DNA of 64,000 nucleotides from Coriobacteriia bacterium. Its GTDB lineage: Bacteria > Actinomycetota > Coriobacteriia > Anaerosomatales > JAJZPX01. Within the stretch, counting starts at the first letter, position 1. Each line of letters starts with the position of its first letter. The position numbers were made by a program, and so were the translations under genes. This document shows positions 19,560-23,658 of the stretch, one piece after another. The notes beneath the pieces were generated by a model. The model was not told where the DNA came from. It searched no databases and saw only the letters and a program-made list of their open reading frames with translations. Location: assembly GCA_036504755.1 (NCBI GenBank), contig DASXUP010000013.1, positions 8,976 through 72,975 of the forward strand, in the 5' to 3' direction.

Positions 19560-20804
19560 TCATCGCGCCAGCGCGAGCATCTCCCGTGTCCGCTTCGCGG
19601 CGAGGCGCAATCCGCCGACTTGCAGCCAGTACTTCACGTAGGTGATGCGCTTCATGGTTATCGCCGGGATCCCCGTCAGCGGGACGCCGTACATCCAGCC
19701 TACGCCCCAGCGCGGCCCGATGCTCACGAACTCCCCGCGCATGTGCGGCGTGAACGGCCGCGGCCCCTCGCCACGCGCCTCGCGCAGTATGTTGTCGGCT
19801 GTCGCGGGACCCTCTTGGATCGCCATCTGAGCGAGCATCATCAGCGGCTGACCCGTGTCGGGGTCGCGAGCCTCCGCCACGTCACCGATCGAGTAGACGT
19901 CGGGGTACCGCGGCGTGCGGAGCGCGGGGTCGACGACCACACGCCCGCCCGCCGAGGTCTCCAGCCCCCATCGGGCCGCGTGCGGGTCCGCCTTCGCGCC
20001 GCCCGCCCAAACGAGGATCGTGCTGTCGACCCGGCGTCCGTCGGAAAGGGCGATCATGTTGCCCTCGACGCGGTCGACGAAGGCGCCCGTGATCACTTCG
20101 ACACCCATCCGGCCCAGACGACGCTCCGCCTTGCCGCGCTCGCGCTCGGGGAGGTCGAAGAGGATCTCGTCGCGGCCCTCGACGAGGTGGATGCTCAGGT
20201 CGGCCGGATCGAGGCCCGCGTCGATGACGCGCCTCGGGAGCATCTGCGCCAGGGTCCCGACGATCTCCACCCCCGTGGCGCCGCCGCCGACCACGGTGTA
20301 GCTCATCGTGCGCCGGCGCTCGTCCCGGTCCGCCACCCGCGCGGCCGCCTTCAGCATCTCCTGCCCGCGGCGCTGCAGCAGGCGCGCATCCTCCACCGAC
20401 CACATGGTGACGGCATGCTCGTCCAGCCCAGGGATCGGCGGCACTGCGGCGACGGCCCCGGTGGCCACGACGAGCCGCCAGTAGTCGACACGCTCGCCCC
20501 CCTCGACCACGATCGCGTGCTCGTCGGGAAGCACCTCGGCCACACGGTTGTAGCAGGCGGTGACGGGAAGGCCGCGGTATATGGTGGGATGCCACAGCTC
20601 GCAGAACTCCGGCCGGTTCGGGCCGACCGCCACCAGGTCGAGCTCGGAGAGCGCCTGCTGGCACGGGTTGGGCTCGACGAGAAGGATGTCGACGTCGTCC
20701 TCCGGCCGCATCCGCCTCGCGAGCCTGACGGCGCACGACGTGCCGGCGTATCCTGCGCCCGCTATCACGACGCGCCTCTTCGTTGTCTCGGGTGCGCAGG
20801 CCAC
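19560..20804 (-). CDS. Type II NADH dehydrogenase-like FAD/NAD(P)-dependent oxidoreductase (NDH-2 family)
   Basis: GTG 20804 has GGAGGG 6 nt upstream and is in frame with track ORF 19560..21164. Two dinucleotide motifs, VVIAGAGYAG and TVVGGGATGVE, plus IGDVA. An alternative ATG start lies at 20870. Confidence 0.8.
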   Translation of the reverse strand: MACAPETTKRRVVIAGAGYAGTSCAVRLARRMRPEDDVDILLVEPNPCQQALSELDLVAVGPNRPEFCELWHPTIYRGLPVTACYNRVAEVLPDEHAIVVEGGERVDYWRLVVATGAVAAVPPIPGLDEHAVTMWSVEDARLLQRRGQEMLKAAARVADRDERRRTMSYTVVGGGATGVEIVGTLAQMLPRRVIDAGLDPADLSIHLVEGRDEILFDLPERERGKAERRLGRMGVEVITGAFVDRVEGNMIALSDGRRVDSTILVWAGGAKADPHAARWGLETSAGGRVVVDPALRTPRYPDVYSIGDVAEARDPDTGQPLMMLAQMAIQEGPATADNILREARGEGPRPFTPHMRGEFVSIGPRWGVGWMYGVPLTGIPAITMKRITYVKYWLQVGGLRLAAKRTREMLALAR

Positions 20805-20927
20805 GTCACTCCCTCCGTTCGCGGGTATGTTCCCGTACCGCGGCGGGCGCGTTTCCGCCCTCCGCCCCATAGGAAGATACTGTACGAGCCGCCTCGCCGC
20901 GACGTCACTCGACCGGAGGAGAGCACC

Positions 20928-21170
20928 ATGGTGAAGGTCTACGCCCTGTCGACGTGCCCGTACTGCAAGATGACGAAGCAGTACCTCTCCGAGAACGGCG
21001 TGGCATTCGAGCACACCGACGTGGACATGCTGGACGGTGAAGAGCGCCAAAAGGCGATCGACACGGTGAAGCGACTCTCGGGCGGGACGTCGTTCCCCGT
21101 GGTGGACGTCGACGGCGAGGTCGTCGTCGGCTTCGACAAGGCGAAGCTGAAGGAGCTGCTGCACCTGTGA
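20928..21170 (+). CDS. Glutaredoxin-like protein, YruB/NrdH type (CPYC active site)
   Basis: ATG 20928 follows GGAGGAG. MVKVYALSTCPYCKMTKQYLSENGVAFEHTDVD...SFPVVDVDGEVVVGFDKAKLKELL. It is the C-terminal 80 codons of track ORF 19542..21170. Confidence 0.85.
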   Translation: MVKVYALSTCPYCKMTKQYLSENGVAFEHTDVDMLDGEERQKAIDTVKRLSGGTSFPVVDVDGEVVVGFDKAKLKELLHL

Positions 21171-21829
21171 GCGATCCCGGCGGATACGCCCTTCGGCCGA
21201 GGTTCGAGCCGGGCACCACAGTCGACGACCTCGAGGCGTACATGGCGCCCTTCGTCGCCACCCTCGGCTACAAGTTCAACACGGACTCGGAGTTCGTCGG
21301 TGCCGTCATGCGGTCCGAGATCGAGATCCTCGGCCGAGACGGCGACGTCTTCTGCCCTTGAAGGATCCGCACCGGCGTGTACGCCGAGGACGTCAAGATC
21401 GTCTGCCCGTGCATCCCGTTCTACCTCGGCGAGTTCTCCGCGATGCGCAAGTGCTGGTGCGGGCTGTTCATCCGCACGGACGTCGAGGACGGGGCCGAGC
21501 TGCACGGCGTGAGCGAACCTCCGACCGGCCCTGTCGAGGTGCGCGTGGCGGCCGAGGACGACTTGCGCGAGGGGGAGGGGAAGGCCGTCACGATAGGGAA
21601 GCGCAAGGTCGCGCTCTTCCGCACCACGTCGGGCTGGCATGCCCTCTCCAACGTGTGCCGCCATTGGGGCGGGCCGCTGGCCGAGGGCCCGGTGGAAGGC
21701 GAGTTCGTGATGTGTCCCTGGCACGGGTGGAGGTACGACGTGCGCACGGGAACGACCGATCACCCGGACGCCGACGTCAAGGTCTACCCCATCACCGTGC
21801 GAGACGGCGAGATCTTCGTCACGGTCTAG
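21167..21829 (+). CDS. Ferredoxin:thioredoxin-reductase catalytic-subunit-like domain fused to a Rieske [2Fe-2S] domain. It is interrupted by an in-frame TGA (21359..21361) inside the CPC motif. It is either a candidate selenoprotein or a split/pseudogene.
   Basis: Track ORFs 21167..21361 and 21377..21829 share one frame. The joined translation is ...GYKFNTDSEFVGAVMRSEIEILGRDGDVFCP[TGA]RIRTGVYAEDVKIVCPCIPFYLGEFSAMRKCWCGLF.... The Rieske motif is CRHWGGPL-x-CPWHGW (C-x-H-x16-C-x2-H). The GTG start overlaps the glutaredoxin stop (GTGA). Confidence 0.55.
21373..21386 (+). promoter_or_regulatory. SECIS-like hairpin candidate downstream of the in-frame UGA
   Basis: CGGCG-UGUA-CGCCG is a perfect 5-bp GC stem starting 11 nt after the UGA, with G as the second loop base. 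A flanking GAUC (21364..21367) / GAUC (21397..21400) pair could extend the structure. This is geometry only. No covariation was tested. Confidence 0.35.
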
Positions 21830-21844
21830 ACGTGCCGGACCGGC

Positions 21845-22213
21845 TCATCGATGGCGGCGGGGTCCGCCATCGATGTTCTTCAGCGATCGTCTTCCCGGCG
21901 CGCGGAACCGTTGCACGCCGACGAGAAGCGCGCTGCCGATCCCCACGAAGGCGACCCACTCCCAGCCTATCGGCGCATGGAGCGCTTCGAGCAGCGCCGC
22001 GGCGGCCGCGCCGAACGCCCAGGGGAGGGTGTAGTACTCGCGGTCGAACGCCTCGAGCACTGCGAGGATGCCGGCGAGAAGCAGCCATCCCCAGAACCAG
22101 ATCTGCACGCCTTCTCCAAGTGGTCGGAGCGAACGGCCAGCGTGCGGCAAGCGTAGCCGAACCATGCCGAGTACCGCAAAGACTACAATGCGCACCGGAA
22201 GAGTGCGTAGCAA
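21845..22213 (-). CDS. Hypothetical small membrane protein (NfeD-like membrane segment); start uncertain
   Basis: Hydrophobic helices IWFWGWLLLAGILAVLEAF, LPWAFGAAAAALLEAL and WEWVAFVGIGSALLVGV. A likely shorter start is GTG (VQIWFWG...) preceded by GGAGAAGG. Confidence 0.45.
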   Translation of the reverse strand: MLRTLPVRIVVFAVLGMVRLRLPHAGRSLRPLGEGVQIWFWGWLLLAGILAVLEAFDREYYTLPWAFGAAAAALLEALHAPIGWEWVAFVGIGSALLVGVQRFRAPGRRSLKNIDGGPRRHR

Positions 22214-22287: not shown

Positions 22288-23241
22288 ATGGCGCTCCCAA
22301 AGTCAGTCATCGACACGATCGGCGACACGCCCGTCGTTCCGCTCAACCGTATCGGCGAGGGCTTGCCTGGCCGCGTCTACGTCAAGCTCGAGTCGCGCAA
22401 TCCCGGCGGCTCGGTCAAGGACCGTATCGGATGGTCGATGGTCGATGACGCGGAGCAGCGCGGTGTCATCCGCCCCGGCGAGTCGGTCCTGGTCGAGCCG
22501 ACCTCGGGTAACACCGGCATCGCGCTCGCGCTGATCGGCGCCGCCCGCGGCTACCGCGTCGTGCTGACGATGCCGGAGAGCATGTCTCTCGAACGGCGCA
22601 AGCTGCTCGCGGCGTTCGGCGCGGAGCTCGTGCTGACGGACAAAGCGGCCGGCATGCGCGGTTCGGTGGAGCGCGCCGCGGAGATCGCTGCCGAGACGGA
22701 GAACGCCTTCATCCCCGGACAGTTCGACAATCCCGCCAACCCGAGGGCGCACTACGAGACGACCGGCCCCGAGGTGCGCCGCGCCCTCGCGGGCATCGAG
22801 ATCGGCGCGTTCGTGGCCGGAGTGGGCACGGGCGGGACCATCTCGGGAGCCGGGCGCTACTTGAAGGAGGCGGACGACGCCACGCTCGCCATCGCTGTCG
22901 AGCCGGAGGAGTCCCCGCTGATAACACAGACGCGCGCGCGCGAGCCGCTGACGCCGGCACCCCATCCAATCCAGGGCATCGGAGCCAACTTCATCCCGAG
23001 GACACTCGATCTGACCGTCCTCGACGGCGTCGAGCTCGTGAACGGACCGGACGCGATCGCCATGGCGCGCCGCGCCGCTGCCGAGGAGGGGCTCCTCGTG
23101 GGAATCTCCTCCGGGGCGAACATCGTCGCCGCCCTCCGGCTCGCTGCTCGCCCCGAGATGACGGGCAAGGCAATCGTCACCGTCGCGCCCTCCACCGGAG
23201 AGCGCTACCTCTCGACCCCCTTGTGGGAGGGGGTGGGCTAG
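22288..23241 (+). CDS. cysK: Cysteine synthase A (O-acetylserine sulfhydrylase)
   Basis: IGDTPVVPLNRI, KLESRNPGGSVKDR (PLP lysine), EPTSGNTGIALA and GVGTGGTISG. The AGGAGG ribosome-binding site is upstream. Confidence 0.95.
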   Translation: MALPKSVIDTIGDTPVVPLNRIGEGLPGRVYVKLESRNPGGSVKDRIGWSMVDDAEQRGVIRPGESVLVEPTSGNTGIALALIGAARGYRVVLTMPESMSLERRKLLAAFGAELVLTDKAAGMRGSVERAAEIAAETENAFIPGQFDNPANPRAHYETTGPEVRRALAGIEIGAFVAGVGTGGTISGAGRYLKEADDATLAIAVEPEESPLITQTRAREPLTPAPHPIQGIGANFIPRTLDLTVLDGVELVNGPDAIAMARRAAAEEGLLVGISSGANIVAALRLAARPEMTGKAIVTVAPSTGERYLSTPLWEGVG

Positions 23242-23658
23242 GTGCGGGTCTCGCAGAGGCTGGACTACGCGCTGCGCGCGCTCACGGCGCTGGCGCAGCA
23301 GCCGGAGGGACGCCCGATGGTCGCCGGGGATCTCGCTCGCGACCTCGGCTTGCCGAAGCGCTTCCTCGAGCAGCAGATCACGGCGCTGGGGAAACGCGGG
23401 TTGGTGAGCTGCCAGCGAGGCGCGTCGGGGGGCTGCGTGCTCGCCCGCTCCCCCGACCTCGTCACGGTCGCCGACGTCGTGCGTGCCGTGCAGGGGGAAG
23501 TGCTGGACGTGCCGCACCGAACGGGGTCGGCCAGTTCGGAGATGTGGCTGGACGTCGCGCGAGCCCTTGAAGACGTGCTCGGATCGGTGACGCTTCGGCA
23601 GCTCGCGAAGCGTCAGACCGAGCTCGACGCGGCGGCCGTTCCCATGTACTACATCTGA
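23242..23658 (+). CDS. Rrf2-family transcriptional regulator (CymR/IscR-like)
   Basis: MRVSQRLDYALRALTALA...DLARDLGLPKRFLEQQITALGKRGLVSCQRGASGGCVLAR. The GTG start directly abuts the cysK TAG. Confidence 0.9.
   Translation: MRVSQRLDYALRALTALAQQPEGRPMVAGDLARDLGLPKRFLEQQITALGKRGLVSCQRGASGGCVLARSPDLVTVADVVRAVQGEVLDVPHRTGSASSEMWLDVARALEDVLGSVTLRQLAKRQTELDAAAVPMYYI

Follow-up and report, generated by a model that had tools for sequence, protein, structure and literature searches.

Within a 64,000-nucleotide stretch of the genome of a Coriobacteriia bacterium (contig DASXUP010000013.1, positions 8,976 to 72,975 of the forward strand; hereafter, the window), a gene was found whose product joins a domain of the ferredoxin:thioredoxin reductase (FTR) catalytic type, FTRc, to a Rieske [2Fe-2S] domain, and in which an in-frame TGA takes the place of a catalytic cysteine. 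This TGA is best read as selenocysteine (Sec). With a probability of roughly 0.6, the gene is considered to encode a Sec-containing FTR-type iron-sulfur disulfide reductase with an attached Rieske domain, paired in one operon with a CPYC glutaredoxin. An earlier, preliminary description of the locus had recognized the domain architecture, which was confirmed, and had left the TGA inside the fusion gene unmentioned.

Around codon 65 the sequence reads F-C-P-TGA-R, and under translation table 11 the gene appears as two open reading frames (ORFs) of 64 and 150 amino acids. A locus scan using one genome per species gave full-length matches at 67 loci. Codon 65 was TGC or TGT in 66/67 of these orthologs, and TGA was shared by locus L014 only (87% amino acid identity). 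Further TGA types were located by a search with the FTRc domain only, which led to split 64-aa and 150/154-aa database proteins and from these to their contigs. These contigs added the types L108/L109 and L107 to those of the window and L014, giving four distinct TGA types from at least eight independent assemblies; a total of 70 distinct types had cysteine at this position. The N-terminal identity of the L107 type was only 70%, and the L014 type was seen in at least five independent samples. Because the TGA recurs in divergent types from independent samples, a sequencing error was excluded. In a survey of the class, genes with a single TGA occurred solely in both genomes of the genus to which the window belongs.

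Both parts of the gene showed signs of purifying selection. Between the window and L014, the ratio of nonsynonymous to synonymous substitution rates (dN/dS) was 0.21 for codons 1–64 and 0.095 for codons 66–220, at dS values of 0.46–0.74. Since the ratio was low on either side of the TGA, both halves were judged to be kept as coding sequence. A possible restart codon downstream of the TGA was not conserved among the types, being GTG at +5 in the window and ATG at +2 in L108. With its catalytic residue encoded by TGA, the enzyme very probably has a selenylsulfide, in place of a disulfide, at its active site. In the phylogenetic tree, the four Sec types grouped with four of the Cys types in one well-supported clade (100/96) with an interior lacking resolution, so that a single change from Cys to Sec was neither shown nor excluded. 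It was also observed that the proline codon preceding the TGA (21356..21358) is the rare CCT in all four TGA forms and CCG or CCC in the nearest Cys forms, perhaps because the TGA forms share an ancestor or because the codon context affects how UGA is decoded. In public databases, genes of the Sec form are represented by a 64-aa ORF without domain match and a 150–154-aa ORF named as "Rieske" (P0142, P0147, P0149, P0152 and P0154); because annotation splits these genes at the TGA, current databases do not show the selenoprotein, which is misannotated wherever it occurs.

A short hairpin with a G in its apical loop follows the TGA and is regarded as a putative, SECIS-like element (SECIS, selenocysteine insertion sequence). 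All four TGA types have exactly the same core, set among flanking codons that vary. For comparison across the family, a hairpin was defined as a perfect GC-rich stem of 5 bp with a loop of 3–5 nt containing G, at an offset of 12–18 nt and at the equivalent position of the gene. Such a hairpin was present in 4/4 TGA types versus 0/70 distinct Cys types; in each of the four nearest Cys forms, one or two bases of the core are changed. A control was available in the same genome, where the hairpin GGUCC-GGC-GGACC lies 15 nt beyond the U of the in-frame UGA of selD, nearly the same geometry. The peptide GVYAED was also considered as a feature unique to the TGA forms and was rejected, being shared by the nearest Cys forms; only the exact bases of the hairpin discriminate between the two groups.

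The genome encodes the machinery for Sec insertion. The genes selD, selA and selB and a tRNA-SeC with the anticodon TCA were clustered on another contig outside the window (C18:159804-168738), with profile scores of 608.5 bits for selA, 393.7 bits for selB and 380.2 bits for selD, and selD itself carries a TGA (TKSG-U-AAK). The distribution of this machinery was examined as a possible discriminator and rejected, as SelB was present in 36/41 ortholog genomes, mostly with the Cys form; its presence is necessary, not discriminating. When the genome was filtered for a TGA followed by a hairpin in an open frame with high GC content at third codon positions, two more candidate selenoprotein genes were noted outside the window, at C4:+:111660 and C5:+:1136 (TGA positions counted from 0 on the strand scanned). 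One of the two resembles SelW/Rdx proteins with a CxxU motif (ITYCTEUGY), and the other contains DHCTSGIUQYNRD.

The two domains named in the preliminary description were both recovered well above their cut-offs, FeThRed_B (PF02943) with 59.8 bits against a cut-off of 22 and Rieske (PF00355) with 67.1 bits against 20.3. The FTRc part follows the pattern CPU-x14-CPC-x13-CWC. Among 54 aligned family members, positions C63, C65, C80, C82, C96 and C98 as well as W97 were invariant, so the unusual CWC of the third cysteine pair, pointed out previously, is present throughout the family. C63, C80, C82 and C96 are the predicted ligands of a 4Fe-4S cluster, with U65 and C98 as the predicted redox pair. 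The Rieske ligands C164, H166, C183 and H186 (CxH...CxxH) were likewise invariant in the 54 members, and the disulfide cysteines typical of bc1-type Rieske proteins are missing from the fused domain.

A structure model of the fusion protein obtained with AlphaFold2 had a mean predicted local distance difference test score of 82.5 and a predicted template modelling (TM) score of 0.66. In Foldseek comparisons, the modelled Rieske domain matched the ferredoxins CarAc, BphA3 and that of naphthalene dioxygenase (NDO) with TM scores of 0.8–0.88 and root-mean-square deviations of 1.3–1.7 Å. The best solved relative of the FTRc part was 4TPU from Methanosarcina acetivorans (residues 29–124 against 16–110, E = 2.8e-8); 7PWE was another relative in the Protein Data Bank. 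In the whole genome, this was the only gene with a FeThRed_B domain (54.3 bits at genome level, one TGA). The FTR variable subunit (PF02941) was not matched anywhere in the genome, whereas a control with Synechococcus was positive. No rubredoxin domain was matched by Pfam in the fusion protein, its C-terminal domain being Rieske, and no second, separate Rieske gene of either cassette type described below was detected in the genome. A conventional thioredoxin reductase, TrxB, is encoded. No signal peptides were found in the sequences of the module proteins, which were accordingly read as cytoplasmic.

The gene directly upstream encodes the glutaredoxin-like protein (PF00462, 57.6 bits). Its stop codon TGA (21168-21170) overlaps the GTG start of the fusion gene (21167-21169) as GTGA, and the sequence AAGGAG lies at 21150-21155, 11 nt 5' of this GTG. 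The coordinates, CPYC motif and overlap given in the preliminary description all proved correct. Its label "YruB-type" was borne out only in part: the YruB-type model TIGR02196 was indeed the best NCBIfam match, with 72 bits under a cut-off of 88.55. In 67/67 loci, the gene immediately before the fusion gene was a glutaredoxin homolog, with stop and start codons overlapping or nearly so, and CPYC was the motif of the partner gene in 66/69 cases. For the glutaredoxin gene, dN/dS between the window and L014 was 0.13. In the divergent intergenic region upstream, a sigma-70-type promoter consensus, which is uninformative for a high-GC actinobacterium, gave no match, and promoter and terminator consensus scans of the locus likewise returned none. 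As part of the interpretation favored above, the glutaredoxin gene and the fusion gene are best explained as a two-gene operon, and the glutaredoxin is proposed to be the disulfide substrate or partner of the FTRc–Rieske protein.

Features of the locus, with positions numbered from the first nucleotide of the window
Feature	Position	Strand	Details
NDH-2-like FAD flavoprotein gene (414 aa)	19560..20804	-	Pyr_redox_2, 137.5 bits
Divergent intergenic region, 123 bp	20805..20927		Shine-Dalgarno sequence of the glutaredoxin gene, GGAGGAG, at 20915-20921
Glutaredoxin-like gene (80 aa)	20928..21170	+	CPYC at residues 10-13 (20955-20966)
FTRc–Rieske fusion gene	21167..21829	+	220 codons including predicted Sec65; GTG start, TAG stop at 21827-21829
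FTR catalytic-type domain	21233..21496	+	Residues 23-110; PF02943
In-frame TGA, codon 65, predicted Sec	21359..21361	+	Second Cys of the first CPC motif; exposed nucleophile position
SECIS-like hairpin	21373..21386	+	CGGCG-UGUA-CGCCG, 11 nt after the UGA codon and 14 nt after its U
Rieske-type [2Fe-2S] ferredoxin domain	21539..21787	+	Residues 125-207; PF00355

The fusion was found to be widespread in one order. Nearly all of the 67 loci carried the labels Coriobacteriia, Anaerosomatales or similar metagenome-assembled genomes, and in the protein database 654 homolog clusters were obtained, the best 120 of which all carry PF02943 together with PF00355. When 401 genomes were sampled evenly from the class, about 146 of them from the order of the window, the fusion gene was present in 132, and 131 of these belonged to that order (approximately 90% of its sampled genomes). 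The sole match outside the order had only 31% identity. Confinement of the fusion to a single assembly, which the preliminary description had named as an outcome speaking against its proposal, was therefore not observed.

Outside this group, the same components occur as separate proteins. Stand-alone FTRc proteins of the CWC type formed 796 clusters, with Chloroflexi, Bathyarchaeota and Promethearchaeota among the source names. On all three long contigs from other lineages (3/3), a cassette of separate genes was found in the order Rieske (about 105 aa), glutaredoxin with CPWC, FTRc and a further Rieske (about 130 aa), and both cassette Rieske proteins retain the CxH...CxxH ligands. Compared with the cassettes of L115, L117 and L118, the fused Rieske domain was 35–39% identical over its full length to the upstream Rieske protein, versus 30–34% over a partial alignment to the Rieske protein following FTRc. 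Because the fused domain is closer to the upstream protein, the fusion does not appear to be a simple merger of adjacent genes. Superoxide dismutase (SOD), hemerythrin and multicopper oxidases were among the cassette neighbors, which were inconsistent across loci. No better argument for a joint function is available than the fact that the three parts occur side by side in several phyla and are fused here. The earlier suggestion that the Rieske domain serves as a built-in electron module and the glutaredoxin as partner or substrate thus gained support of a comparative kind, from the 67/67 linkage, the cassettes, the order-wide fusion and the rubredoxin of 4TPU.

The most likely mechanism would be as follows. 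UGA would be decoded as Sec65 by SelB and tRNA-Sec. The Rieske center would take up single electrons and hand them to the 4Fe-4S cluster held by C63, C80, C82 and C96, which, by analogy with FTR, would lie beside the Sec65–Cys98 selenylsulfide. The selenylsulfide could then be cleaved in two successive one-electron steps, as in FTR, after which Sec65, by way of a mixed Se–S intermediate, would open the CPYC disulfide of the glutaredoxin. The reduced glutaredoxin would be set free for downstream targets. In the same best explanation, the module would run beside the conventional NADPH thioredoxin reductase.

Several observations weigh against this interpretation, some of them concerning the hairpin and others the proposed electron flow. 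A similar hairpin follows 2.5% of all TGAs in the genome. The element is short, and the minimum free energy fold of 21350-21420 was no better than that of shuffled sequences (z = -0.52); no bacterial SECIS-type Rfam family was matched in the whole window at the gathering threshold or in 21300-21460 at a permissive one. Because the fold energy is unremarkable, the case for a SECIS rests on comparative conservation, and here the nearest Cys forms, with the same GVYAED peptide, differ from the hairpin by just one or two bases. With regard to the enzyme, no biochemistry on the Rieske-fused family was found in the literature searched, the main survey of FTR diversity lying outside it. Rieske ferredoxins of the dioxygenase class typically have potentials near -150 mV and the active-site disulfide of FTR near -320 mV. 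Since the Rieske potential is the higher one, forward electron flow may be uphill, unless the centers are tuned or the glutaredoxin is of high potential. The histidine of the canonical CHC motif, important in plant FTR, is tryptophan here, which may alter the chemistry.

A candidate for the electron donor of the Rieske center had been put forward in the preliminary description, namely the divergently transcribed flavoprotein resembling type II NADH dehydrogenase (NDH-2), 123 bp from the glutaredoxin gene. Its position and its resemblance to NDH-2 were confirmed, and the similarity extends over the full length. The best match was Bacillus subtilis YjlD (9pxk, E = 3.6e-48, residues 10–399 against 3–387), followed by the NDH-2 enzymes of C. 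thermarum and S. aureus (4nwz, 2.2e-42, and 5na1, 1.4e-32). The best NCBIfam model, TIGR03169, which is named for an N-terminal SelD fusion, reached 104.5 bits against a cut-off of 310, and nothing was drawn from it. The gene was adjacent and divergent in 16/67 loci, including the window and L014. Orthologs were present in 31/36 genomes, often 4–16 kb from the module or elsewhere. In the 51/67 loci without an adjacent flavoprotein gene, a DUF5671 gene and a gene of the metallo-beta-lactamase fold were found upstream of the glutaredoxin gene instead, and the three unfused cassettes did not contain the flavoprotein. Judging from these observations, the protein is probably an ordinary respiratory NADH:quinone oxidoreductase only loosely linked to the module, and its proximity within the order looks like drifting synteny.

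The suggestion that this flavoprotein is the upstream reductant was consequently not upheld. In the stronger form of a dedicated NAD(P)H-dependent Rieske reductase, analogous to enzymes of the BphA4 type, it is considered improbable: adjacency in the window, L014 and 14 other loci, a location within about 4–16 kb of the module in many genomes and membership in the Pyr_redox_2 superfamily, like BphA4 (weak matches, about 1e-6), speak for it, but the gene is non-adjacent in most loci and absent from the cassettes, the likeness to respiratory NDH-2 extends over the full length, and proximity within one order may be inherited. A fairly small chance is given to a reductase for which the glutaredoxin is not the substrate. 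In this case a low-molecular-weight disulfide, a persulfide or another protein would be reduced, with the glutaredoxin acting in parallel, upstream or as a maturation factor. The physiological substrate of the M. acetivorans relative appears not to be settled, and the separate roles of the two cassette Rieske proteins are unexplained, both of which would leave room for such an arrangement; against it stand the invariable adjacency of the glutaredoxin gene with its overlapping or nearly overlapping stop and start codons, its retention in all three unfused cassettes and the conservation of its CxxC motif.

The module might also work in the opposite direction, with electrons passing from the glutaredoxin or its clients through the Sec/Cys pair and the 4Fe-4S cluster to the Rieske center, with its relatively high potential, and from there to the quinone pool, to O2-linked enzymes or to a similar acceptor. 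Such a thiol-oxidizing module, which would be a disulfide-forming or redox-sensing system, is regarded as unlikely. It would agree with the Rieske fold, since ferredoxins of the dioxygenase class are typically far more positive than FTR disulfides, with the invariant change from CHC to CWC, after which the chemistry may differ from that of FTR, with the lack of a reductase consistently encoded beside the module or the cassettes, and with the presence of SOD, hemerythrin and multicopper oxidases near the cassettes. However, all characterized enzymes of the FTRc type are, as far as known, reductive, the proteins are cytoplasmic and without signal peptides, the neighboring genes vary between loci, and a Sec at the attacking position usually marks a disulfide-attacking reductase. 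Least probable by far is a TGA acting as a true stop, which would leave a pseudogene, or a gene split into a peptide of 64 aa and a Rieske protein of 150 aa that carries a crippled remnant of FTRc. The broken frame under table 11, the products of 64 and 150/154 aa given by gene callers and the GTG five codons past the TGA are what such a stop would predict. Nevertheless, both halves are under purifying selection, the TGA lies exactly at an invariant catalytic cysteine and was kept in four divergent types and many samples, the possible restart codon is not conserved, the genome holds no other copy of this gene, which is found throughout the order, and the Sec machinery is present together with a hairpin specific to the TGA forms.

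Further genes accompany the module at variable frequency. In most loci without the NDH-2 gene, the DUF5671 gene, encoding a small membrane protein, lies on the same strand directly 5' of the glutaredoxin gene, abutting or overlapping it (L042:3314-3742, L029:3382-3738), and its product may be a third member of the operon in those genomes. Downstream of the fusion gene in the window, a convergent 122-aa ORF (21845..22213, minus strand) gave no Pfam or NCBIfam match. Homologs of it were found in 29/67 related loci; where the gene is called in relatives, about 10 nt of it overlap with the 3' end of the fusion gene. Its product resembles a small membrane protein, and an SPFH/band-7 gene lies next to it in other loci. 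It is followed at 22288..23658 (plus strand) by a CysK-like PALP enzyme and then directly by an Rrf2 regulator, a pair accompanying the module in 18/67 loci.

As far as sequence evidence reaches, the locus appears to encode an uncharacterized, Rieske-fused and glutaredoxin-linked FTR-type reductase conserved order-wide, and in this genus a previously unannotated selenoprotein. To our knowledge, FTR-type enzymes are the only disulfide reductases that split a disulfide by means of an iron-sulfur cluster in two one-electron steps. Which donors and substrates they use outside photosynthetic organisms is for the most part obscure. With a hard-wired Rieske donor and a glutaredoxin partner, the module would be a defined system in which all components but one are known from genes, and it could reveal how anaerobic, glutathione-poor bacteria keep their thiols reduced. 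The closely related Sec and Cys enzymes (77–87% identical) would permit a direct test of the contribution of selenium to the chemistry. A more speculative proposal, held with some doubt, is that Rieske, glutaredoxin and FTRc of the CWC type constitute a distinct and widespread class of iron-sulfur thiol-disulfide oxidoreductases, using Rieske proteins as obligate electron partners in place of ferredoxin or NAD(P)H, working at a potential unlike that of known thioredoxin- or glutaredoxin-reducing systems or even oxidizing, and switched to Sec in one genus. If this is true, the class would be fused in an actinobacterial order and would take the form of a cassette of four genes in Chloroflexi, archaea and other groups, and sister species would provide natural Sec/Cys isoenzymes.

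When compared with known systems, the FTRc of plants and cyanobacteria (PF02943, e.g., 7PWE) shares the FeThRed_B domain and, apart from the differences named below, the six-cysteine pattern, implying a 4Fe-4S cluster beside the redox pair. Plant and cyanobacterial FTR, however, combines a variable subunit, free ferredoxin and thioredoxin, whereas here the genome encodes no variable subunit, and the protein has a fused Rieske domain and a glutaredoxin-like partner. The classical motif is CHC with cysteine at the active site, in contrast to CWC with predicted Sec and a spacing of CPx-x14-CPC-x13-CxC; in plant FTR the spacing of the CxC motifs is x16/x8. The ferredoxins CarAc, BphA3/BphF and NDO have the same fold and ligand set as the Rieske domain of the window. 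They are free shuttles from a flavoprotein reductase to an oxygenase, while here the Rieske domain is fused to a disulfide reductase domain and no oxygenase lies nearby.

The FTR-like ferredoxin:disulfide reductase of M. acetivorans (4TPU, deposited as "Rubredoxin") is similar in uniting an FTRc-type domain and a C-terminal one-electron carrier in one chain, likewise without an FTR variable subunit. Its carrier is a rubredoxin, in contrast to the Rieske [2Fe-2S] domain of the window, and the family described here is set apart by the CWC motif and the obligately linked glutaredoxin gene, the gene of the window also by its predicted Sec. The four-gene cassette of Chloroflexi and other uncultured lineages consists of the same three kinds of parts, with CWC and the order glutaredoxin–FTRc–Rieske, but as separate genes with two Rieske proteins and a CPWC glutaredoxin instead of one fused Rieske domain and a CPYC glutaredoxin. 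In the literature searched, neither a description of the FTRc–Rieske fusion nor a characterization of the unfused cassette was found.

Precedent does exist for Sec in this domain. Sec-containing FTRc homologs were predicted in 2008 from Global Ocean Sampling (GOS) reads, with Sec at redox-active cysteines (Zhang & Gladyshev, PMC2398784), and a review of 2022 (PMC9312934) gives CxU as the motif of Sec-FTRc. Against the NCBIfam model NF041072, "FtrB family double-selenoprotein", the protein of the window, with its single TGA, scored only 24.3 bits, far below the cut-off of 160. The proteins predicted from GOS reads and by NF041072 agree with the window in having UGA at a redox-active FTRc cysteine. 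The GOS proteins are stand-alone, come from marine reads and in some cases contain two Sec residues, whereas the protein described here has one predicted Sec and is fused to a Rieske domain.

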